From Thermoanaerobaculia bacterium (GTDB lineage Bacteria; Acidobacteriota; Thermoanaerobaculia; Multivoradales; JAGPDF01): 64,000 bases of DNA. Numbering within the stretch: position 1 is the first letter of the stretch; every line of letters starts with the position of its first letter. Made by a program: the position numbers and the translations under genes. The notes below the pieces were generated by a model. The model searched no databases and was not told where the DNA came from. It saw only the letters and a program-made list of their open reading frames with translations. Shown piece by piece: positions 9,243-20,627 of this stretch. Location: NCBI GenBank assembly GCA_963699245.1, contig OY969426.1, positions 133,494 through 197,493 of the forward strand, given 5' to 3'.

Positions 9243-10670
9243 TCAGTGCGCGTTGTGACGCAGGCCGTGGCGGATCGTCATCCAGAGAATCTGGAAGTCG
9301 AGGCCCAGCGACCAGTTTTCGACGTAGTAGAGGTCGTACTCGAGGCGCTTGCGCACCGAGGTGTTGCCGCGCCAGCCGTGCACCTGCGCCCAGCCGGTGA
9401 TGCCGGCCTTGACGCGATGCCGCAGCATGTACTGCGGCAGGTGCTGCTTGAACTCGCTGACGAAAGTGGGGCGCTCCGGACGCGGGCCGACGAGCGACAT
9501 CTCGCCCTTGAAGACGTTCCAGAGCTGCGGCAGCTCGTCCATCGACCAGCGGCGCAGGAAGCCGCCGAATCGGGTGCGGCGCGGGTCGCTCTCGACCGCC
9601 CAGACCGGACCGCTCGAGGCCTCGGCGTCGACCCGCATCGAGCGGAACTTCCAGATTTCGAACGAGCGCCCGTCGAGTCCCATGCGCTCTTGCCGGTAGA
9701 AGATCGGGCCGCGGTCTTCGAGCCAGATGATCAGCGCCACGAGCGGGTAGAGGGGGGCGAGCACGAGCAGGCCGAGCGCCGAGAGGGCGATGTCGACCAC
9801 TCGCTTCACCAGGCTGTTCCACCCCTGCAGCGGCACCTGGGTCAGGTTGATGATCGGCGCGCCGTCGAGATCCTCCAGCGTCGCCTTGATGGTGGCGTAC
9901 TGCAGGATGTCCGGCACCAGCTTGACCTCGACGCACTCGGCGCCCACCGCCTGCAGCACGCGCATCATCTTGCGGTGCGCCTCGAGCGGCAGGGCGACGT
10001 AGACCTGGTCGACGCGGGTCGCGGCGACGACTTTTTCCACCTCGCGCGTCGTGCCGAGCACCGGCAGGCCGAGGATGGTGCGCCCGGCCTTGGCCGGATC
10101 GTCGTCGACGAAGCCGACCACCTCGACGCCGTAGTCGCGATTGGCGAGCAGCTTGGCGGCGACCTCGGTGCCGAGCTTGCCGGCGCCGACGATCAGCGTG
10201 CGCTGCGGCTGGCCGACGTGCAGGCTGGCGCTGAACAGCACCCAGCGCACGAAGGCGCGCATGGGCACCACCAGCACCAGCTCGAGGCCGGCGAACATGG
10301 CGATGAAAGCGCGGCTGTAGGTGAAGTACTCGATGCTGCCGGGCTGCAGCGAGGGGCGATACCAGGAGACGACGCCCGACAGCAGGACGGTGCCGAGCAG
10401 GACGCCGAAGAGGAACGATACCGCCTCGTCGACCCGGCTGCGGGTGGTCCGCTGGCGATAGGAACCGTGAAAGTAGAAGACGACCGGGAAGAGAAGGAGG
10501 ACGACCGGCAGCAGCTCGAGATAGCGCTCGAAGTCCGGCGCCGTCTTGGTGAGCGGAACGACCTCGGCGGTGAAACGGAGGTACCAGGCGGCGAAGAAGG
10601 CACCCGTCGTCGCGACGAGGTCGCCGAACAGGAGGAGGGCCGAGGTGATCCGGTGCCGCTGTCGAGTCAA
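9243..10670 (-). CDS. polyprenyl-phosphate sugar phosphotransferase (WcaJ/EpsB-type initiating transferase)
   Basis: N-terminal TM helices. C-terminal bacterial sugar-transferase domain PIFYRQERMGLDGRSFEIWKFRSMRVDAE..DELPQLWNVFKGEMSLVGPRPERP. A TTG at 10670 overlaps the upstream stop (TTGA). The longest ORF start at 10799 would overlap the upstream gene by 130 nt. Confidence 0.85.
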   Translation of the reverse strand: MTRQRHRITSALLLFGDLVATTGAFFAAWYLRFTAEVVPLTKTAPDFERYLELLPVVLLLFPVVFYFHGSYRQRTTRSRVDEAVSFLFGVLLGTVLLSGVVSWYRPSLQPGSIEYFTYSRAFIAMFAGLELVLVVPMRAFVRWVLFSASLHVGQPQRTLIVGAGKLGTEVAAKLLANRDYGVEVVGFVDDDPAKAGRTILGLPVLGTTREVEKVVAATRVDQVYVALPLEAHRKMMRVLQAVGAECVEVKLVPDILQYATIKATLEDLDGAPIINLTQVPLQGWNSLVKRVVDIALSALGLLVLAPLYPLVALIIWLEDRGPIFYRQERMGLDGRSFEIWKFRSMRVDAEASSGPVWAVESDPRRTRFGGFLRRWSMDELPQLWNVFKGEMSLVGPRPERPTFVSEFKQHLPQYMLRHRVKAGITGWAQVHGWRGNTSVRKRLEYDLYYVENWSLGLDFQILWMTIRHGLRHNAH

Positions 10671-11803
10671 GCCAGGAAATCCTCCGCGTCCGGCCAGTCT
10701 TCGGCGACCAGCGCGCCGAGTCGGCGAGCGAACGAATCGGGGGAATAGCTCCCCGCTCGCCCCCTGAGGTTCACGGAATTGAACTGCATCCGCCGACATT
10801 TGTCAATCGCTGCAGCGATTTCCCGCGGCTCGTCCTTGTGGAAAAAGACCCCTTCCTGCCCCTCGCGGACGATGTCCAGGACCCCCCCGCGGCCGAGCGC
10901 CACGACCGGGGTTCCACAGGCCAGCGCTTCGACCGTGGCGATGCCGAAATCCTCGATTCCAGGCTGCAGGAAGCAGATCGCGCCCCGGTAGGCCTCGCGC
11001 AGCAGGGGGCCCTCGACCCGCCCCGCCAGGCGCACGTCGGGACCGGCGAGCCGGGACAGGGCCTCCCGTTCGGGTCCGTCGCCGACGACGACCAGCGGAA
11101 TACCGGCCAGCCGGCAGGCCTCGATGGCCAGATCCACTTTTTTGTACGGGGAGAGCGAGGCCACCATCAGGGCGTGCCGCCGAGGGAGCTCCTCGCCGGC
11201 GGGCGCCGGGGTGAAGAAGGCGGTGTCGACCGGCGGAGGGAGGACCTCGGCGCTGCGGCCGTAGTAGCGATGGATGCGGTCGGCGACGAAAGTGGAGTTG
11301 GCGAGGTACCGATCGGCTCGGCCGGCAGTGGCGACGTCCCACTGGCGCAGCGCTGCCAGGACGGTCCGCCGCAAGACGCGGACGATCCCCCGATCGCGCC
11401 CGAAATAGGCCTCGATCTGGTCCCAGGCATAGCGCATCGGCGTGTGGCAGTAGCAGAGGTGGAAAGCGCCGGGACCGCGCCGGGCGCTCTTGGCGACACA
11501 GTGGCTGCTCGAGATCAGGTAGCGATGGCCGGTGGTCGGCAGGCCCTCGACGGCGAGCGGGAAGAGCGGCAGGTACGAGCGGTAGTGCGGATCGATCCCG
11601 GGCGCGCGATCGAGGAAGCTGGTGACGATCGGGTGGCTCTCGATCTCCGGGTCGACGCTGCCGGGAAAGTGGAAGAGCGTGTAGACCGGCGCCCCCGGAA
11701 AGAGGCGGCAGATCTCGCGCAGGACGTTCTCGCCCCCGCGCTGGCCGGTCAGCCAGTCGTGGACGATGCCGACCGGATGATCGAAGCGCCGGCGGGCGGT
11801 CAT
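10667..11803 (-). CDS. glycosyltransferase family 4
   Basis: C-terminal part of the 724-aa ORF 10667-12841, from MTARRRFDHPVGIVHDWL.. (ATG 11803, ATGA overlap with the upstream gene). ..SLSPYKKVDLAIEA..VVVGDGPE.., EDFGIATVEALACGTPVVA (EX7E). Confidence 0.85.
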   Translation of the reverse strand: MTARRRFDHPVGIVHDWLTGQRGGENVLREICRLFPGAPVYTLFHFPGSVDPEIESHPIVTSFLDRAPGIDPHYRSYLPLFPLAVEGLPTTGHRYLISSSHCVAKSARRGPGAFHLCYCHTPMRYAWDQIEAYFGRDRGIVRVLRRTVLAALRQWDVATAGRADRYLANSTFVADRIHRYYGRSAEVLPPPVDTAFFTPAPAGEELPRRHALMVASLSPYKKVDLAIEACRLAGIPLVVVGDGPEREALSRLAGPDVRLAGRVEGPLLREAYRGAICFLQPGIEDFGIATVEALACGTPVVALGRGGVLDIVREGQEGVFFHKDEPREIAAAIDKCRRMQFNSVNLRGRAGSYSPDSFARRLGALVAEDWPDAEDFLA

Positions 11804-12950
11804 CGGCGGGCCCCGATTCCGGTCGCGCGAGCTTCGCGATAGAGCGCCAGGGTGCGTTGCGCCGTCGTTTCCCAGGAGTAGCCGCCGGCGCGGGCGCGGC
11901 CGCGCCTGGCGAGGCTCGGCGCGCAGATCGGCGCTCGTCATCAGTCGTTCGAAAGCGGCCACGAAGCCTTCGACGTCGTCGGGATCGACCAGCAGGCCGG
12001 CGTCGCCGATCACTTCGGGCAGAGCGCCGCGATCGGCGGCGACCACCGGGACCCCGGAGGCCATCGCCTCGAGCGCCGGCAGCCCGAACCCTTCCCAACG
12101 CGAGGGGACGGCGACCGCGAGAGCGCCTTGGTAGAGCGCCGGCAGCGCGTCGTCATCGACCCGGCCGAGGTAGCCGACTTTGCGCCGCGCCGGCAGCCGC
12201 GCCGTCGCCGCGACGGCGCCCAGGGCCCGCGCCTGCGCGTCGCCGTGCGGCCCGGGTCCACCGCCGACGACGACCAGGAACGGAGAGTCGTCGTGGCGGT
12301 CGACGAGCCGTGCGTGGGCTTCGAGAAGCAGCGCCAGGTTCTTGTGCGGCTTCGGGTTGCCGACGAAGAGGAGGTAGCCGGGGGCGAGCCCGAGCCGATC
12401 GAGCCGGCTCCGCAGCTCGTCCGGAGCGAGAGCGGCGCGGAAGCGCTCGTCGACGCCGTTCGGGATCGCCACGACGCGCGCCGCGCTGCGGCCGAAGGTC
12501 GCGCGCAACTCGCGCGCCGTCGCCTCGGAGACTGCGATCGTGAAGCGCGCCCGGCGCAGCGCCCGGCCGATCATCAGGCGGGCATAGAGGCGCTCGTGCA
12601 GGCGGAAGAGCTCGGGGAAGCGAAGATGGATCAGGTCGTGAACCGTGACGACGAGCGGACAGGGGAGGAAAGCCGGTGTCACGTAGTGCGGGGCATGGAA
12701 GAGGCCGGCGCCGGCGGCGCGCGCGGCCCGCGAGAGCCGCCAGAGCTCGCTCAGCGAATAGTGCGGCGCGCGCGCCTCCCGCCAGCTGAAGCTCGCCGGC
12801 AGCTCGGGCACGCCGCCCTGATCGCGGTCGCCGAGCAGCACGTAGCGGTTCTCGCGGTCGATCGAGCGCCAGGCCGGCCACCAGACCCCGGATGTAGGTG
12901 CCGATGCCGAAGTCGGCGATCTTGCGTGCGTCGAGCGCGATGGTGCTCAC
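11800..12950 (-). pseudogene. glycosyltransferase family 4, two frame switches (about 12870 and about 11912)
   Basis: GTG 12950 (VSTIALDARKIADFGIGTYIRGL..), HAPHYVTP..VTVHDLIHL, GNPKPHKNL, SRWEGFGLPALEAMASGVPVVA. The conserved tail ..LARRGRARAGGYSWETTAQRTLALYREAR..* is only reached in the +1 frame and ends at TGA 11800-11802. Confidence 0.75.
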
Positions 12951-14036
12951 CGCGCCTCCTCGGCGAGGACGTCGCGGAAGAGCGCGCTCAACCGGTCGGC
13001 GGCCTCGGGCCAACGGTAGAGCGCCGCGCGCGCGCGTGCCTTGCCGGCGAGGCTCCGCGACCAGCGCCGGCTCATGGACGAGACGCGCCATCGCAGCGGC
13101 GAGCGCGGCGGGGTCTTCCGGGTCGATCGCCAGGCCGGCGTCGCCGGCGACCTCTTCCGGGCTCGTCCCGGCGGCGACGACGACCGGCACGCCGCAGGCG
13201 AGCGACTCCGCCACCGGCAGGCCGAAGCCCTCGTAGATCGAGGGGTAGACGAGCGCGGCAGCTCCCTGGAAGAGGCGGACGAGCTCGGCCGCGTCGACCT
13301 TGCCGAGGCGCCGCACGCCGGCCGGGGCCAGCCGCTCGAGGCGGCGCTCGAGGGAGCGGCTCTTCCATCCGGTCGGGCCGACCACCAGCAGCGGCAGCGC
13401 CGCTTCGGGCTCCTCTCGGCGCAGCAGCTCCCAGGCGTCGAGCAGCAGATCGAGGTTCTTGCGCGGTTCGAGGGTGCCGGCAGCGAGGAAGTAGCCGCGC
13501 GGCGCATCGTGCCGCCGACGCTCGGCGTCGATCTCCTCGCGCGTCGCCGGCGTGAACTCCGGCGCGACGCCGTGCGGGATGACGCAGAGCTTGCCGCGCG
13601 CTGCCGGAAAGGCCTGTTCGATTTCGCCGGCCACCCGCCGGGTGCCGACCACGATCCGGCGCGCCCGTTCGACCGTCGGCTGCAGGAAGGGGAGGAGGCT
13701 CCAGCGCACCTTGGCCGGGAGGGTCTCGGGAACGTGCAGGGCCGCGAGGTCGTGCAGGGTGACGATTCCCGGCACCGGCAGCCGGCGGGGCAGGGTCAGG
13801 AGCGGCGACCAGAAGAGGTCGATGTCCCCCTGCGCCAGCCGGCCGGGGAGGACGAACTGCTGCCAGAGGACGCCGAGGGGCGCCGGCTGCCATTCGACCG
13901 CGACGCCCATCGCCCGCAGCTCGGGCGCAGCGGCGGGCTCGCGGTGGGCGACCGCGAGGAGGTCGAACTCGCCGCGGCGCGACAGCTCGCGCAGCAGCTC
14001 GATCGTGTAGACGCCGATGCCGGTCGTCGACCGCAC
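12947..14036 (-). pseudogene. glycosyltransferase family 4, frame switch about 13050; true start probably upstream of 14036
   Basis: ..TGIGVYTIELLREL.., VTLHDLAAL, GTLEPRKNL, SIYEGFGLPVAESLACGVPVV. The tail LAGKARARAALYRWPEAADRLSALFRDVLAEEAR* is in the +1 frame (ORF 12947-13507). The conserved N-terminal RLAVDLRAA lies upstream of the first canonical start codon. Confidence 0.75.
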
Positions 14037-14183
14037 GGCGGCGCGCAGGTCGACGGCGAGGCGCGGGCGTCGGCGGGAATCCGGAATCGGGGCCTCCTCA
14101 ACGGGGGAGCCACGCGGCTCTGCGCGCTCCGGGAAGCGCCAAGTCTAGAGCCGGAGAGCGCCGGCGGCGAACCGGCGCAGGTC

Positions 14184-15017
14184 TCAGACGCGATTGAGCC
14201 GGTGGGAGAGGTCGCGCAGGAAGCGCCGGCCGCGCTGCGCGCCGGCCAGCGAGGCGGGCTCCTCCCGGCCGGCGATCTCGAGAATGAAGGTGCCGTGGAA
14301 ACCGATGCGGTCGAGCTGGCGCAGCAGGGCTTCCCAGGGGAGGCGCCCGTCGCCGGGCGGCAGGTGGTCGTCGTAGGTGCCATGGGTATCGCTCGCGTGC
14401 ACCATCCAGAGGTGCCCGGAGAGCTTGTGCGCGACGTGCTGGATGTCGCCCGAGAGGTAGGCGTGCCCGGTGTCGAGGCAGATGCCGACGTCGGTCGTTT
14501 CGAGCGATCCCAGCAGCCAGAGCAGATCGCGAACGTGCCCGCAGAAGAGGTGGGGCAGCATGTTTTCGAGCACGAGAAGGGGGCCGAGCTCGCGACAGCG
14601 GCGGGCCAGGTCGTTGAGCGCCACCGCGGCGTTCGACATGCGATCCAGCCGCTCGGAGGCGGGCAGCCCGGAGTGCTCGGGCCCCGGGTGGATGACGAAG
14701 TGACGCGAACCGAGGATGGCCGCGGCTTCGGCGGCGAGGAGGATCTCGGCCACCGAGCGGCGGCGCGCCTCCGGATCGGGCGAAGTGATGTCGATCCAGT
14801 CCGCGAACGGCGCGTGGAACGAGTAGCACTCGAGGTCGAGCTCGCGAACCCGTTGCGCCGCCCGCTCGACCGCGCCGCGGTCGTGGTAGTCGAGATGCTC
14901 CGGCCACGAGCAGACTTCGATCAGGCCGAAGCCGGCATCACGCACCCGATCGAGGCACTGCAGGATGTTCGTCCGGTAGAAGCAACCCGTCGAGAGGCCG
15001 ACCGGCCAGTCGCCCAT
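14184..15017 (-). CDS. xylose-isomerase-like TIM-barrel protein (AP_endonuc_2 fold: sugar-phosphate isomerase/epimerase or Endo IV-like)
   Basis: 277-aa ORF. Metal-ligand pattern FHAPF.., VIHPG, LVLEN, ICLDTGHAYLSG, MVHASDTHG..DDHLPPGDGRLPW, FILEI. Confidence 0.8.
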   Translation of the reverse strand: MGDWPVGLSTGCFYRTNILQCLDRVRDAGFGLIEVCSWPEHLDYHDRGAVERAAQRVRELDLECYSFHAPFADWIDITSPDPEARRRSVAEILLAAEAAAILGSRHFVIHPGPEHSGLPASERLDRMSNAAVALNDLARRCRELGPLLVLENMLPHLFCGHVRDLLWLLGSLETTDVGICLDTGHAYLSGDIQHVAHKLSGHLWMVHASDTHGTYDDHLPPGDGRLPWEALLRQLDRIGFHGTFILEIAGREEPASLAGAQRGRRFLRDLSHRLNRV

Positions 15018-16458
15018 GGAGTCTCCTCGCCAGCAGCGAGTCCCGGAAGGGGGCCAGGGAGCAGGCTCCCCCGGGGCACTCGCGCTTCTCCTGCGTCGAA
15101 CGGCAGTTGTAGTCGATCAGGTCGTCGCGTCCGGCCGCAAAGAGGGAGGTGAAGATCCGGACGTAGAAGTCGGCGCGCGGTCCGGGATCGTGGAAGTGGA
15201 TGCCCGGCTTCCAGCCGAAGTCGGCCGCGTAGCGCGATCGGACGAGCTCGACGATCCGTCGCGGGTGCCATCCGAGCGCCAGCAGGCTGCGCGTCACCAT
15301 CTGCAGTTCCGCCGGCTGGAGCAGTCGATCGTTCGGCGCGTCGAGAGGCTGGCGAGCGCAGGGCGGAAGCTGAGCGAGCGCGGCGGTCTCGCGGCCCTTC
15401 GCGGAGGGCGCGGGAGAGTGCTCGGCGCCGTAGAACCATTCGTGCACCCGGGCCAGCGGAGAGGCGCAGTAGGCGTCGAGCAGGTTTGCCGAGGGCGCGG
15501 TCTGCTCGGGAATCCTCGTCGAGGACCGTTCGGCGAGAGCGCTCGCCGCGCCGAGGTCGGTCCGCGCGCGGAGGGCCTCTGCCTCGTCGCCGCCGACGAC
15601 GGGGATCACGAGAAGCGGGCGCGACTTCGCCGGTAACCACTTGCGGTAGGAGGAGAAGGGGAGACGGAGGCGCCGCGCGAGGAGCGGGTCGCCGTATTCC
15701 GAGAGATCGATCGAGACGATTTCGCGTCCCTGGCTGCCCGCGCCCACTTCGACCGCCGTGATCATCACCGGCGTCGGCGCGCGTCCTCCCATTCGCTCGA
15801 GCACCCGGTGCGCGAGGTACTCCAGCATCTGTCCGAGGCCGAGATGCGCGGCGGCGAGTCGGCGCCGGGTGTGGCCAGGCCTTGCGCGCTTCGCGCCCTG
15901 CTCGGTCGGCACCCGTGCCCCGAGCTCGGCGAGCGCTTCCACCACGTCGGAATCCGCGGCGATCCGCCAGAGGAAGTGGTGGCCGCGGCCGGTCAGCAGG
16001 TGGAGGGGCTCGATGCCCAGCGCCGTCAGCTCGCCGAGCAGGGCGTCGACGACCGGCCGTTGCATCGCGAAGCATCGCCGCGGGTCGAGGCAGCCGCGTC
16101 CCGGGGCGTCGAAGTCGAGGTACTCGAGATCGAGATCGACCAGCAGGGATTCCGCATCGGCGAGCGAACGGGAGACTTCCCTGCCGGAGCCGAGCGCCGA
16201 CCAGAGGTCGCCGGGCGGGATGCGGCGCCAGGTACTGTCAGGGAGCGGCTCGTCGAGGTAGAGGCAGCTCGGGCGAGATCCGCGTCCCCCGAGGAACTCG
16301 AGGATCCGCGCGCGGACGCTGGGCTTCGCGCAGAAGTCCTGCAGGTTCGCATTCGCCGGGCTCTCGGTCGCCGGGTCAGTCGTGGTCGCGCGCAGGAGCT
16401 GTGCTCCTCTGCGGAGAAGGGAATCGACACCTCCGCGGGCCGAGGCTAGGCCCGCCAT
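14938..16458 (-). CDS. hypothetical protein with PriS-like archaeo-eukaryotic primase (AEP) motifs
   Basis: ORF 14938-16539. Start is probably M28 (ATG 16458), because the longest start overlaps the divergent gene. Ordered motifs: LLVDLDLEYLDFDAPGRGC, LLTGRGHHFLWRI, VSIDLSEYGDPLLARRLRLPFSSYRKWLPAKSRPLLVIPV. The 3' end overlaps the next gene by 80 nt. That it is coding is fairly safe; the function is inferred. Confidence 0.55.
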   Translation of the reverse strand: MAGLASARGGVDSLLRRGAQLLRATTTDPATESPANANLQDFCAKPSVRARILEFLGGRGSRPSCLYLDEPLPDSTWRRIPPGDLWSALGSGREVSRSLADAESLLVDLDLEYLDFDAPGRGCLDPRRCFAMQRPVVDALLGELTALGIEPLHLLTGRGHHFLWRIAADSDVVEALAELGARVPTEQGAKRARPGHTRRRLAAAHLGLGQMLEYLAHRVLERMGGRAPTPVMITAVEVGAGSQGREIVSIDLSEYGDPLLARRLRLPFSSYRKWLPAKSRPLLVIPVVGGDEAEALRARTDLGAASALAERSSTRIPEQTAPSANLLDAYCASPLARVHEWFYGAEHSPAPSAKGRETAALAQLPPCARQPLDAPNDRLLQPAELQMVTRSLLALGWHPRRIVELVRSRYAADFGWKPGIHFHDPGPRADFYVRIFTSLFAAGRDDLIDYNCRSTQEKRECPGGACSLAPFRDSLLARRLHGRLAGRPLDGLLLPDEHPAVPRSGA

Positions 16459-16525
16459 TCGCGTCACGCACCGTCCCAAGGGGTAGCTCCCGGGGCGGCG
16501 TGCTCTTTCTGTAGGCTTGCCGACC

Positions 16526-16972
16526 ATGTCCGAGGCCAATTCGACCGGCGCCGACGCCGAGCGCGAGCGTGCCGCCGCCGCGCTCGCCGCGCTGCGCGCC
16601 GCGGTCCGTCAGCGCCAGGGGGAGGTGGCGACCGCCGGCGGGGGCACCGACGAGCTGTCGGGGCGCCTGGCCGATCTCCGCCAGCGCGAGTTCGTGCAGG
16701 AGCCCGTTCCGGTCTCGCCCCGGCCCGGCTTCGGACGGCTGATCGTGCTGGCCCGCAAGGCCTTCTACCACCTCTTCGTCAAGTGGCACGCGCGCGCCGT
16801 GCTGCAGCAGCAGAACGAGTTCAACCAGACCGCCTCGGCGCTGCTCGCGACTCTCGCCGAGCGCGAGCACGAGACGCGGCGCGAGCTCGACCGCCTGCGC
16901 ACCCGGCTCGACGCGATCGAGAGCGCGGCCGGGAGCTCCGCCCGCCCCTCGACGCCGGGAACGGCGCCTTGA
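16526..16972 (+). CDS. hypothetical coiled-coil protein
   Basis: ORF 16517-16972 (ATG 16526). ..FYHLFVKWHARAVLQQQNEFNQTASALLATLAEREHETRRELDRLRTRLDAIE. Its stop overlaps the next start (TTGA). Confidence 0.6.
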   Translation: MSEANSTGADAERERAAAALAALRAAVRQRQGEVATAGGGTDELSGRLADLRQREFVQEPVPVSPRPGFGRLIVLARKAFYHLFVKWHARAVLQQQNEFNQTASALLATLAEREHETRRELDRLRTRLDAIESAAGSSARPSTPGTAP

Positions 16973-18016
16973 GCCTCCGCATCGCGATCTGCGCCGCCCA
17001 GGTTCCCTTCACCCGCGGCGGCGCGGAAGTGCTCTACGAATCTCTGCGCGACGAGCTCCTCCGTCGCGGCCACCAGGCGGAGATCGTGGCCCTGCCGTTC
17101 AACTGGTCGAGCCGCCTGAACATCCTGCGCAGCGCGCTCGCCTGGCGGCTGCTCGATCTCGAGGCGGCGGCGGGGGAGCGCATCGACCTGGTGATCGCCA
17201 CGCGCTTCCCCTCCTACGCGGTGCGTCATCCGCGCAAGGTGGTCTGGCTGATCCACCAGTTCCGCCAGATCTACGATCTCGCCGGGACGCGCTTCAGCGA
17301 CTTCGGCGCCCGGCCGGGCGACGGCGAGGTCGAGGCGATGATCCGCTCGCTCGACGCCCGGGCGCTCGGCGAAGCGCGGGCCCGGTACTCGATCTCGCAG
17401 AACACCGCCGATCGCCTCAAGGCGCACAACGGCCTCGACGCCGAGGCGCTCTATCCGCCGCCGAAGCTCGATTTCGCTTATCGCGACGGCGCCGCACGGC
17501 GACACCCTCTTCACCGTCGGCCGGCTCGACCCGATGAAACGTTTCGACCTGCTGCTGCGCGCTCTCGCGCACACCCGGCGGCCACTGCGCGCGGTGATCG
17601 CCGGCGAGGGGCCGGACGGCGAGCGCTTGCGCGCCCTCGCCGCGGAGCTCGGTGTCGGCGAACGCGTCGAGTTCCCGGGGCGCATCGGCGACGAGCGGTT
17701 GATCGAGCTCTACAGCGAAGCGCTCGCCGTCTTCTATGCCCCTTTCGACGAGGACTACGGCTACGTGACGGTCGAGGCCTTCCGTTCCGCCCGGCCGGTG
17801 CTCACCACCGCCGACGCGGGCGGCGTTCTCGAGTTCGTGCGCGACGGCGTCAACGGCTTCGTCGCCCCGGCCGGCGGAGTGCGGGAGATCGCGGCGCGAG
17901 CCGACGCGCTCTACGACGACCGCGAGCTGGCGCGGCGGCTCGGCGACGCGGGCGCCCGCGCCGTCGCCGGCATCGGCTGGGATGCCGTCGTCGAGCGCCT
18001 GCTCGGCGCGCTCTGA
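16969..18016 (+). pseudogene. glycosyltransferase family 4, one frame switch about 17490
   Basis: TTG 16969. LSLRIAICAAQVPFTRGGAEVLYESL.. (frame of ORF 16783-), then HGDTLFTVGRLDPMKRFDLLLRAL..FYAPFDEDYGYVTVEAFRSARPVLT (ORF 17534-18016). Confidence 0.75.
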
Positions 18017-18023
18017 GGCGACC

Positions 18024-19413
18024 ATGCGCCTCGCCTTCGCTTCGCCGCTGCCGCCGCTGACTTCCGGCATCGCCGACTATGCGGCCGAGCTGGTGCCGGC
18101 GCTCGCCGCGGCGGGCGTCGAGATCACCCTCTTCCACGAAGGCAAGGAGCCGCCGCGCTCGGCCGCGCTGGCCGGATACCCGGCGCGGCCGATGGGCGAG
18201 CTCGCCGCGGCGAACGGCAGCTTCGACGCGGTCCTCTACCAGATGGGCAACAGCGGCCCGCATCACGCGGCGATCTACGCCACGCTGCTCGAGTCCCCCG
18301 GCTTCGTGCTGCTGCACGAGTTCATGCTCCACCATCTCGTGCGCGAGCTGACTCTGGCGCGCGGCGACGGCGCCGCCTACGTCGAGGAGATGCGCTACGC
18401 GGCGGGGGAGACCGGTCGCCGGGTCGCCCAGCGGCTGCTCGACACCCATCGCCCGGTCGATCCCTGGAGCTTCCCGCTCTTCGAGCGCGTCGTCGATCGC
18501 AGCCTCGGCGTCCTCGTGCACTCCGAGTTCGCGCGACGGCGAATCCTCGCCAGCCGTCCGCAGGCGGCGGTCGAAGTGGTCCCCTTTCCGGCCGATCTCG
18601 CCGCGCTGCCCGCCGGTGGACGAGGACCGGCGCGCCGGGGCGCGACGCGACCTCGGGCTGCCGGCGGATGCCTTCGTCTTCGCCTCGTTCGGTTTCGTGA
18701 CGCCGCACAAGCGTCTCGATGCGGCGCTGGCGGCCTTCGCCCGGCTGCGCGCGGCCCGGCCCGCGGCCCGCTTCCTGATCTGCGGCGAGGTCGCGGCGCA
18801 GTACGACCTCGGGGCGATTCTCGATGTTGCCGGCGGCGACGGCGTGACCGTGACCGGCCGCGTGCCGCTCGAGAAATTCCATCGCGCCATGCAGGCCTGC
18901 GACGTCGCGGTGAATCTCCGTCATCCGACCGGTGGCGAGACTTCGGCGTCGCTGCTGCGCCTGCTGGCGTCCGGCATTCCGACCATCGTCACCGACGTCG
19001 GCTCTTTCGCCGAGCTGCCCGACGGTGTCGTCGCCAAAGTGGCGATGGACGAACGCGAGGTCGACCATCTGGCCGCTCTCTTTTCGGCCCTCGCCGGCGA
19101 CTCCGGACTGCGGCGCGCGATGAGCGTCGCCGCCCGCCGCCACGTCGAGACCCACCACGAGCTCGGGCACGCGGCGAGCGCGCTGCTCGCGGCGCTCGAG
19201 CGGCTCCGCGCCCATCCGGCGCGGATCGACCCGGCCGTGCCGCCGCTCGCCCCCTGGTCGGCGGACGACCCTCGAATCGCGCTCGCGGCCTCGATCGGCG
19301 CCGACGTCGCCGACCTCGGGCTGGCCGGCGTGGCGGGTGAGGAGCTCCTCGCGGCGGTGGCCGGCACGCTGGCGGAGCTCGACTGGGCCCCGCGACCGGA
19401 TCGCCGCCGGTGA
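18024..19413 (+). pseudogene. glycosyltransferase family 4, one frame switch about 18610
   Basis: ATG 18024. MRLAFASPLPPLTSGIADYAAEL..VLVHSEFARR.. (ORF 17982-), then VDEDRRAGARRDLGLPADAFVFASFGFVTPHKRLD..NLRHPTGGETSASLLRLLASGIPTIV (ORF 18616-19413). Confidence 0.75.
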
Positions 19414-20627
19414 AGAAGCGGGTCGGCGCGCGCTGGGGGGTGGCGGCGGGCCTCGCGCTGGCGACGGTCGCTCACCTGCTTTACTGGTACTGGCCGCGCG
19501 AGCACGCCGGCCTGCCCGGCCCGCACGCGGCAGAGGAGCTCGATGAGCGAGGCTGGGACGCGGTGCTCTGGGTCCCCTTTCCGCACCAGAACCTGGGAGT
19601 GCTCGAGCGGCGGGTCGGGGACGTGCGCGCCTGGTTCGCCCTGCTGGCGGGGGACGACCGCGGCGCCGGGGACAGGGTGCCCGGCTTCGGCCCCTTCGTG
19701 GTTCCACCGGCGCGCGAGCTGGTGGTCGCGACGGCCGAGCAGGGCACGCGGATCCGCATCGAGCTCGCGGTCTATCCCGGCATTCGCTGGCTCGCCCGCG
19801 CCGCCGGAGCGGTCGCCCGCAACCCCTGGCTGGCCGGGGGGACGGTGCGCTGGCGGGGCGGCGCCGAAGCCCGGGTCGACTGGCAGGGGGGGCGCTGGCG
19901 GCTGAGCGCCGGAGAGCCGCCGGCAGGCGCCCGCGAGGCCGAGGCCGTTCCTGTCGGCCGGTCACTCGGCCAGCTCCGGCTGGGGCACGCACTGCGACAG
20001 TTGCCGGAAGGGCGCTATCGCCTGGAGCGCGGCTCGGTGGGGCTCGAGCTGCTGCTCGGCGATCCGCCGTCCGCGGTGACCGCCGCGATCGACGCGCCGC
20101 CGGACGAGCCCGCCGGCTGGATGCTGGAGACCGAAGGGAAGCGGGGCGTTCTCGCGCGCGCAGCCTGGACCGAAGAGGGCGCGCTCGACGACTTCCCGAC
20201 ACTGGTCGTCCTCGGCCGCGGAGCCGGCGCCCGCCGCCTGCGGGTGCCCGGCGAGGAGCTCCTTCGGCTGGCTGGCCGTTCGCCAGAGTCCCGGCGCGAA
20301 GGGGGCTTCGAGATCCGCGGTCTGTCGCGCGCCGAGGTCGAGCGCGGCGTCCCGATCGCCCGTCGACTCGATGACTTGCTGACGCGCGAGCCCGACCTGC
20401 GGGCCGCGATGGCGATCGACCCGCGCGCCATGGCGGACATCTCCCGGCGGCTCGGCGCGCGGCTGGGCGGGCTCCCTCTGCTCGCCCTCGCCGGAATCGA
20501 TCCGGCCCGAATGAACGATCTGCTCGCCCCCTGGGAAGGGTGCGGCACCTCGCGGCTCGAGGTCTGGCGCCGGCCCGTGCGGGTGCGGTGGGAGCTCTGC
20601 CCCGAAGCGGCCCCGGCGCCGAATTGA
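19410..20627 (+). CDS. hypothetical protein, N-terminal membrane anchor
   Basis: 405-aa ORF whose start overlaps the upstream stop. MKKRVGARWGVAAGLALATVAHLLYWYW.. I recognise no family. Confidence 0.6.
   Translation: MKKRVGARWGVAAGLALATVAHLLYWYWPREHAGLPGPHAAEELDERGWDAVLWVPFPHQNLGVLERRVGDVRAWFALLAGDDRGAGDRVPGFGPFVVPPARELVVATAEQGTRIRIELAVYPGIRWLARAAGAVARNPWLAGGTVRWRGGAEARVDWQGGRWRLSAGEPPAGAREAEAVPVGRSLGQLRLGHALRQLPEGRYRLERGSVGLELLLGDPPSAVTAAIDAPPDEPAGWMLETEGKRGVLARAAWTEEGALDDFPTLVVLGRGAGARRLRVPGEELLRLAGRSPESRREGGFEIRGLSRAEVERGVPIARRLDDLLTREPDLRAAMAIDPRAMADISRRLGARLGGLPLLALAGIDPARMNDLLAPWEGCGTSRLEVWRRPVRVRWELCPEAAPAPN

Follow-up and report, generated by a model that had tools for sequence, protein, structure and literature searches.

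In a 64,000-nucleotide stretch of the genome of a Thermoanaerobaculia bacterium (contig OY969426.1, positions 133,494 to 197,493 of the forward strand; hereafter the window), two overlapping genes on the minus strand encode an archaeo-eukaryotic primase (AEP)-like protein and a TIM barrel related to endonuclease IV (Endo IV). We propose, with a probability of about 0.6, that this pair constitutes a self-contained, chromosomally inherited two-protein module for DNA repair, working in excision or in end processing. The first protein consists of an AEP catalytic domain followed by a helical domain with four cysteines, which probably binds a metal or an iron-sulfur (Fe-S) cluster, and the second, as far as its sequence indicates, is an Endo IV-type TIM barrel with a predicted trinuclear metal site. 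Bacterial AEPs are known mainly from LigD/Ku end joining, from Prim-PolC and from mobile elements, and a literature search found no description of a pairing between an AEP and an Endo IV-like TIM barrel.

The AEP-like gene and its catalytic domain

The gene and the elements of its catalytic domain are located in the window as follows.

14938..16458, minus strand: AEP-like gene, 506 aa (ATG at 16458, TGA at 14938-14940)
15604..16359, minus strand: AEP catalytic domain, residues ~34-285, delimited from the AlphaFold2 model and Foldseek
16108-16146, minus strand: motif I, residues 105-117, on strand 104-115, with D110-L-E112 at 16123..16131
15967-16008, minus strand: motif II, residues 151-164, PLHLLTGRGHHFLW, with G157, R158, G159, H160, H161 and W164
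15640-15726, minus strand: motif III and the segment after it, residues 245-273, REIVSIDLSEYGDPLLARRLRLPFSSYRK, with D251, D257, R262, R265, Y271 and K273

The open reading frame (ORF) spans 14938..16539 and would encode 533 aa from a TTG start at 16539 or 506 aa from the ATG at 16458. The TTG start is less likely, because it would run past 16517, the start of a divergent plus-strand gene (16517..16972), and because the N-terminal 30 residues of the protein are not conserved. The base composition of the window is ~71% GC, and a spurious high-GC ORF was considered but ruled out: the GC content at the three codon positions (0.74/0.54/0.84) matches that of the real genes in the window, the alternative-frame ORFs over the same region do not have this pattern, and a database search retrieved more than 200 homologues of ~480 aa. 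All of the homologues that carry a name are entered as 'hypothetical protein', and their sources include Verrucomicrobium spinosum, Roseiconus and Thermoguttaceae. The protein itself gave no match in Pfam, NCBIfam, PHROGs or PADLOC (the sole PADLOC/PHROG match had an E value of 0.01), in agreement with the remark in an initial annotation of this DNA that it carries no polysaccharide-enzyme signature, and phmmer and profile searches of the PDB sequences returned only chance matches (an oxidoreductase, COX-2).

The AEP assignment comes from the predicted structure and from the catalytic motifs. An AlphaFold2 model computed from a 54-sequence input reached a pLDDT of 86.7 and a pTM of 0.88, and when it was compared with the PDB by Foldseek the top 19 matches were all AEP enzymes, eight of them at a probability of 1.00. 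The best were the Prim-PolC structures of Mycobacterium smegmatis (6sa0/5op0; E 4e-4, probability 1.0), and the others included the polymerase domain (PolDom) of M. tuberculosis LigD (2r9l), the CRISPR-associated Prim-Pol CAPP (7p9j), human and yeast PriS and the PrimPol of African swine fever virus (ASFV). The target-normalised TM-scores to bacterial Prim-Pols were 0.43-0.58, and in a viral structure library those matches that bear a name were mostly primases or replication proteins. The initial annotation had called the protein PriS-like; its AEP fold is borne out by these comparisons, while PriS is not its nearest relative, Prim-PolC and the LigD PolDom being closer.

In AEPs, motif I is a DxD or DxE at the end of a hydrophobic strand, motif II is sGxGxH, and motif III is hhhD, which provides the third metal ligand. 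The three motifs quoted in the initial annotation are present in what is a real gene, and in an alignment of 81 homologous sequences their key positions (D110, E/D112, H160, D251) are kept in 80 or 81 members. D110 is found in 81/81 and position 112 is E in 78 and D in three, these two residues being the predicted metal-binding carboxylates. Within the TGRGHH segment of motif II and just after it, G157, R158, G159 and W164 are invariant (81/81), with H160 in 80/81 and H161 in 79/81; D251 (VSID251), D257, R262, Y271 and K273 are likewise present in all 81. The model places motif I on strand 104-115, motif II at the turn before strand 159-167, and motif III at the end of strand 246-251. As this is the arrangement of AEP motifs I-III, an AEP fold and active site are well supported by the predicted structure together with motif conservation. 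A chance resemblance is argued against by the conservation of the motif residues in 81 homologues and by the fact that the fold independently retrieves AEPs. Since no curated sequence model matches, membership in the superfamily is drawn from fold and motifs; the protein belongs to no existing curated family and represents a new AEP family and architecture.

The Endo IV-like TIM barrel

The downstream gene, its overlap with the AEP-like gene and the codons of its predicted metal ligands are located as follows.

14184..15017, minus strand: TIM-barrel gene, 277 aa (PF01261, E 2e-40)
14938..15017, minus strand: overlap of the two genes, 80 nt, out of frame
15023..15027, minus strand: Shine-Dalgarno sequence AGGAG, 5 nt before the TIM-barrel ATG
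14814-14816, minus strand: H68
14688-14690, minus strand: H110
14565-14567, minus strand: E151
14463-14474, minus strand: D182 and H185
14397-14399, minus strand: H207
14364-14372, minus strand: D216 and H218
14277-14279, minus strand: E247

The 80-nt overlap that had been described for this gene is confirmed, and so is the fold: the protein matches PF01261 (AP_endonuc_2) over profile positions 1-248 of 249. An MNIO/DUF692-type TIM barrel was ruled out, as the match is to PF01261 instead of DUF692. Nine residues, H68, H110, E151, D182, H185, H207, D216, H218 and E247, are invariant in 78 family sequences. When the family was aligned by hhalign with E. coli Endo IV (Nfo), using a reference sequence checked as identical to 1QTW (probability 96.7%, E 3e-10), H110, E151, D182 and H185 were paired with Endo IV H109, E145, D179 and H182, and H207, D216, H218 and E247 with H216, D229, H231 and E261; H68 corresponds to Endo IV H69 by the offset of the TIGR00587 match only (protein 68-191 = profile 69-188). 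The barrel thus shares with Endo IV the PF01261 fold and all nine metal ligands, and its HAPF motif sits where E. coli Endo IV has HDSY.

The ketose epimerase/sugar isomerase branch of the superfamily was also considered. D-tagatose 3-epimerase has counterparts of the E, D/H, H and E positions and none of H110, D216 and H218, and the scores of the barrel against the epimerase and isomerase models of NCBIfam are all far under their cut-offs. This branch was rejected because the four-ligand site found there is present here, but together with five Endo IV ligands that D-tagatose 3-epimerase lacks. The description of the barrel as Endo IV-like in the initial annotation is accordingly supported by sequence at the level of the active site. 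That the protein is a metal-dependent phosphodiesterase is well supported, and we infer that DNA is its substrate.

The nearest solved structures are TTHB071 (3AYT/3AYV) and MJ1311 (3WQO), with an E value of 1.5e-14; both are functionally uncharacterised and have been listed as predicted AP endonucleases (PMC3084264, PMC2770678). In the alignments with TTHB071 and MJ1311 the same motifs stand at the Endo IV ligand positions. Judged by these alignments, the barrel forms a separate subfamily together with the two proteins, which may belong to the same phosphodiesterase branch.

Conserved pairing and gene overlap

The AEP-like family is not rare. A distribution scan with one genome per species detected relatives in 343 species-level genomes, and an exhaustive profile search recovered 707 clusters at 50% identity (E <= 0.001), 319 of them with E <= 1e-30. 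The gene neighbourhood was surveyed in the 80 best loci and in a second fetch of 35. Going by record titles, the 80 best loci come from Verrucomicrobiota (44), Planctomycetota (16), Fibrobacterota (8), Acidobacteriota (6), Desulfobacterota (3), Nitrospirota (1) and Methylomirabilota (1), with one unclassified.

A TIM-barrel gene lies directly downstream on the same strand in 79/80 of these loci, which cover seven phyla, and in 34/35 loci of the second fetch, several of which are on contigs of the first set, giving 113 of 115 in total. In the survey the conserved partner of the AEP-like gene was therefore the TIM barrel and not the glycosyltransferase operon next to it in the window. The TIM barrel is better conserved (47-69% identity) than the AEP-like protein (39-47%). 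In addition, the two proteins are fused into a single chain in P0131 (747 aa) and P0155 (724 aa), and a CBS pair is fused to the AEP in P0213 (612 aa). Verrucomicrobium spinosum and Roseiconus carry the pair as a unit of two genes with unrelated genes on either side.

The coding sequences overlap in 73/79 loci, and 65/79 (among L003-L080, across seven phyla) show one and the same +1-frame overlap of exactly 59 nt, the ATG of the barrel being preceded by a GGAG-type Shine-Dalgarno sequence. In the window and its close relatives the overlap is 80 nt instead of 59, this lineage having lost the 59-nt stop so that translation reads on. In the common arrangement the upstream TGA is composed of the wobble T of TIM-barrel codon 19, which occurs in six different codons, and the GA of an Asp/Glu codon, suggesting that the position of the stop is itself maintained. 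In the window the AGGAG of the barrel is at the same time coding sequence of the AEP-like gene, forming part of Arg-Arg (AGG AGA), and the disordered C-terminal tail of the AEP-like protein shares its bases with the conserved N-terminus of the barrel, MGDWPVGLSTGCFY. The conserved tail of the family, RR.HERLA.RPF..LFLP.EH, is encoded by DNA that also contains the Shine-Dalgarno sequence and specifies the barrel's conserved MxxWPxGLSTGCFY; a role as a functional peptide was considered for it, and its conservation is largely explained by this overlap. We propose from this gene organisation that the two proteins are made from one transcript, and they most likely act as a complex.

A mobile-element or defence origin was also considered. 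The family was not found by tblastn in 72,556 plasmid and 50,697 phage records, and these negatives, those from PADLOC and PHROGs and the stand-alone pairs speak against such an origin. The AEP-like family is vertically kept on chromosomes.

Links to DNA repair and other recurring neighbours

Only two loci lack the TIM barrel, L071 (Desulfobacteraceae) and L155 (Desulfobulbaceae), and their AEP-like proteins share 94% identity. There the 3' end of the AEP-like gene is overlapped instead by a gene for a protein of the uracil-DNA glycosylase (UDG) superfamily, which carries the SMUG-type motif GMNPGPWGMTQTGVPF. Upstream, in divergent orientation, both loci have two Ku genes, and a NUDIX hydrolase gene is close by. 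The longer of the two loci, L155, adds a tandem universal stress protein (USP) gene and PolX (DNA polymerase beta-like + PHP). PolX is also encoded on the downstream side of the pair in Desulfurivibrio (L177), at a distance of 0.7 kb, and in an acidobacterium (L007), at 6 kb. The nearly constant TIM-barrel partner, the single-chain fusions and this exchange of the partner for a UDG beside Ku, NUDIX and PolX genes favour the suggestion made in the initial annotation that an AEP and an Endo IV-like protein form a pair for nucleic acid repair or priming.

The stretches L155 3105-11826 and L071 2993-8544 constitute a small DNA-repair island in Desulfobulbales, with the order tandem USP, two Ku, AEP-like, SMUG-like UDG, thioredoxin-reductase-like flavoprotein, NUDIX and PolX-PHP in L155; no ligase gene was seen in the island.

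Other neighbours recur around the pair: universal stress proteins in 32 loci, P-type ATPases in 20, CBS proteins in 18, Hsp20 in 16, phosphoribosyltransferases in 13, phosphoenolpyruvate (PEP) synthase in 12 and proteins binding cyclic nucleotide monophosphates (cNMP) in 11. The USP, Hsp20 and CBS neighbours fit a role in stress or quiescence.

A 156-aa CBS-domain gene stands directly upstream of the AEP-like gene in two close relatives of the window (L081 9504-9974, L083 9538-10008), touching or overlapping its start. Where the relatives carry this gene, the window has only ~58 nt (16459-16516), and no CBS homologue was found across its 64 kb.

Proposed pathway and comparison with known systems

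In the mycobacterial LigC/Prim-PolC pathway, the 3' block that base excision leaves is removed by Endo IV, after which Prim-PolC closes the short gap using ribonucleotides and LigC does the sealing; the proteins peak in stationary phase (PMC5663958). Prim-PolC is also the best structural match of the AEP-like catalytic domain, and the same two enzyme types are paired here. As the pair would hard-wire two activities of this pathway, a course of cutting or cleaning, gap filling and sealing is proposed. The Endo IV-like enzyme would cut the phosphodiester at an abasic or oxidised site, or strip a 3' block, to leave a 3'-OH; the AEP would extend this end across a short gap, possibly with ribonucleotides like Prim-PolC, while its helical domain may hold the DNA; and a ligase encoded elsewhere in the host would seal the nick. 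In some lineages a CBS protein, presumably a nucleotide sensor, would be added. The analysis shows the folds, the active-site residues, the pairing, the fusions and the gene context, whereas for this scheme we infer the substrates, the sequence of the steps, the formation of a complex, the metal content and the physiological timing.

The proposed module differs from the mycobacterial pathway in several respects. The AEP-like family has no similarity to Prim-PolC detectable by hidden Markov models, and its protein has an extra four-cysteine helical domain. Mycobacterial Endo IV is a separate housekeeping gene, whereas the nuclease here is dedicated, encoded by an overlapping or fused gene, and belongs to a different TIM-barrel subfamily; moreover, no linked ligase gene was seen. 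LigD (POL-PE-LIG, that is polymerase, phosphoesterase and ligase domains) with Ku likewise combines an AEP polymerase with a phosphoesterase that cleans 3' ends, its PolDom is among the top structural matches, and two Ku genes flank the AEP-like gene in L071 and L155. However, the end cleaner of LigD has the PE fold, while here it is an Endo IV-type TIM barrel, and a ligase domain is lacking.

Several observations weigh against the repair module. The Pfam DNA_primase_S, Prim-Pol and LigD-type models matched none of 54 family members, even at E values up to 10. The query-normalised TM-scores are moderate (0.3). An hhalign comparison of the family with a profile built from Mt-PolDom (sequence identical to 2IRU), 5DMU and Prim-PolC was weak and not significant (P = 0.0076, probability 5%); in this alignment motifs II and III are in register, motif III lining up with VFVDWSQN...PYS of Mt-PolDom, and motif I falls on the same strand about two residues off. 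For the barrel, the TIGR00587 (nfo) score of 26.2 bits is far below the cut-off of 129.65, ketose epimerases (E 1e-7) resemble the sequence as a whole more closely than Endo IV does (E 2e-4), and the best NCBIfam match is the cobamide phosphodiesterase CbiR (NF041277; E 4e-16, full length), at 59 bits against a cut-off of 105. CbiR belongs to the same AP_endonuc_2 superfamily, and no cobamide genes were seen in the neighbourhoods. Ku was found in L071 and L155 only and not in the other surveyed loci, and no ligase was present among the recurring neighbours, although no search was aimed at it. Finally, the counts of stress-gene neighbours come mostly from Verrucomicrobiota and are raw counts without a background control.

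The cysteine-rich helical domain and alternative functions

The C-terminal part of the AEP-like protein bears most directly on the first alternative, that of a true primase, and comprises the following features.

15016..15603, minus strand: C-terminal all-helical domain, residues 286-481 (separate domain model, pLDDT 84.6)
15358-15360, minus strand: C367, conserved cysteine
15103-15105, minus strand: C452, conserved cysteine
15076-15078, minus strand: C461, conserved cysteine
15061-15063, minus strand: C466, conserved cysteine

Among the 81 homologues, C367 is kept in 81, C452 in 77, C461 in 80 and C466 in 65, and most of the sequences without C466 still hold three or more cysteines within residues 445-480; the four cysteines are presumed to form a metal or Fe-S site. 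The order of an AEP domain and an all-helical cysteine-rich domain in one chain recalls the PriS-PriL primase fusions (PMC3973330, PMC10250227), and the protein might accordingly be an enzyme of fused PriS/PriL-like type, able to initiate chains de novo, for example when synthesis is restarted or re-primed at damage, with the TIM barrel preparing or trimming the site. Pfam DNA_primase_lrg gave weak matches in 2/54 members (E 0.15), and LPPCAR at C367 lines up with FPPCMR of the C-terminal domain (CTD) of human PriL, where C287 is the first Fe-S ligand, with C461 falling at C384. The hhalign comparison behind this alignment was weak (P = 0.012, probability 4%), however, and the cysteine spacing, C-X84-C-X8-C-X4-C, is unlike that of PriL. 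The confident model of the domain found no relative in the PDB by Foldseek, PriL-CTD included (best E = 4). As the P value is only 0.012 and the cysteine spacing differs from PriL, we leave the helical domain as new.

PolpTN2 and the fused PriS-PriL of Nanoarchaeum equitans share with the AEP-like protein the succession of an AEP and a helical domain in one chain and the weak PPCxR resemblance. Unlike these primases and the mobile-element AEPs, the family is chromosomal and was not found in the plasmid and phage collections; no linked helicase was seen, and the C-terminal domain has no structural match to PriL-CTD. The paper on mobile-element AEP families names no TIM-barrel partner (PMC5862659). 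With gap-filling repair polymerases as the nearest structures of the catalytic domain and no helicase or replication gene among the neighbours examined, a true primase is unlikely. Its more specific form, a chromosomal PriS/PriL-type primase with a remodelled Fe-S domain that would serve, with the Endo IV-like nuclease, de novo repair synthesis in non-growing cells, appears slightly less probable still.

A second alternative is a role in signalling or defence, in which a nucleotide or oligonucleotide signal would be synthesised by the AEP-like palm and hydrolysed by the TIM barrel as its phosphodiesterase, with CBS, USP and cNMP-binding proteins exerting control, or in which the pair would act against phages. 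The CBS genes that adjoin or are fused to the AEP-like gene in some lineages, the USP and cNMP-binding neighbours and the match of the barrel to CbiR, a phosphodiesterase of small molecules, could all be read in this way. We know of no AEP with a signalling or defence role, however; PADLOC and PHROGs gave nothing beyond one match at E 0.01, synteny is stable within lineages, which is not the pattern of defence islands, and where the partner is exchanged it is for a DNA glycosylase beside Ku and PolX. We therefore consider such a role improbable.

The third alternative, which the initial annotation had set beside repair, concerns the surroundings of the pair in the window, where three GT4 glycosyltransferase genes and a Bac_transf polyprenyl-phosphate sugar transferase gene, confirmed by Pfam, follow directly downstream on the same strand. 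The AEP-like protein might then be a nucleotidyltransferase and the barrel an isomerase or phosphodiesterase of sugar phosphates, both serving glycan synthesis with the products of these genes. The TIM barrel is of a xylose-isomerase-like family, and no terminator was predicted between its gene and the first GT4 gene; scans for promoters and terminators between the genes of the window gave no signal for or against. The complete gene order recurs in close relatives at 67% and 52% identity: the fab genes are followed by plsX, rpmF, yceD, a hypothetical gene, a pair of glycosyltransferase genes and a small gene, and then, divergently, by CBS, AEP, TIM barrel, three GT4 genes and the sugar transferase. 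Glycosyltransferase genes are present on the other side of the pair too, in the window as in close relatives. Within 10 kb of the 80 diverse loci, from seven phyla, there was nevertheless no Bac_transf homologue and one marginal GT4 match only. The pair stands alone in Verrucomicrobium and Roseiconus, and the barrel has the full nine-ligand Endo IV site, not the four-ligand site of the epimerases. As only close syntenic relatives share it, the glycosyltransferase context is incidental and lineage-specific, and recruitment for glycan synthesis is very improbable.

Equally little credence is given to RNA repair, in which stressed cells would rely on the TIM barrel to heal the 3' ends of damaged RNA and on the AEP for nucleotide addition, as nothing speaks for it beyond the generic fit of a phosphoesterase with a nucleotidyltransferase and the stress-gene neighbours, while no RNA ligase, kinase or methyltransferase recurs nearby and the variant loci hold the DNA-specific UDG, Ku and PolX.

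Implications of the new family

Whichever function applies, these analyses define a large further AEP family that is undetected by the Pfam and NCBIfam models and was seen named only as hypothetical protein, a new cysteine-rich helical domain attached to an AEP, and a long (59-nt) gene overlap that is conserved unusually deeply. They also give a starting point for assigning a function to TTHB071 and MJ1311, two orphan structures of Endo IV-like type. If the repair module is real, it would supply polymerase and end-cleaning activities to poorly studied phyla of soil, sediment and gut and would offer biochemists a minimal two-protein system. If the pair were instead a primase system, it would represent a previously undescribed bacterial pathway of damage tolerance, with carriers in Planctomycetota, Verrucomicrobiota, Acidobacteriota, Fibrobacterota and others.

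Other genes of the window

A Ku query of the window found nothing, in line with the initial annotation, which had noted no Ku nearby. The PlsX protein of the window has 64% identity to PlsX from Thermoanaerobaculia/Acidobacteriota genomes, which makes an acidobacterial origin of this DNA probable. The glycosyltransferase genes on both sides of the pair (10667-14141 on the minus strand; 16783-19413 on the plus strand) are broken across frames when compared with the intact genes of the close relative L081. In the first GT4 gene the frame changes at ~13051-13056, and its conserved N-terminus has no canonical start codon before it; in the second the change lies at ~12862-12867, and the plus-strand glycosyltransferase genes appear split between ORFs. 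Either these genes are pseudogenes or the long-read contig contains assembly indels. The genes of the AEP-like protein and the TIM barrel, unlike them, are intact.

The gene divergent from the AEP-like gene (16517-16972, plus strand) encodes a 151-aa protein without a Pfam match that is 80% identical to its counterpart in L081. Farther along the plus strand, between the glycosyltransferase genes and the yceD-rpmF-plsX-fab cluster, 19410-20627 encodes a conserved 405-aa protein, also without a Pfam match, and the relatives carry a gene of similar size at the same position.

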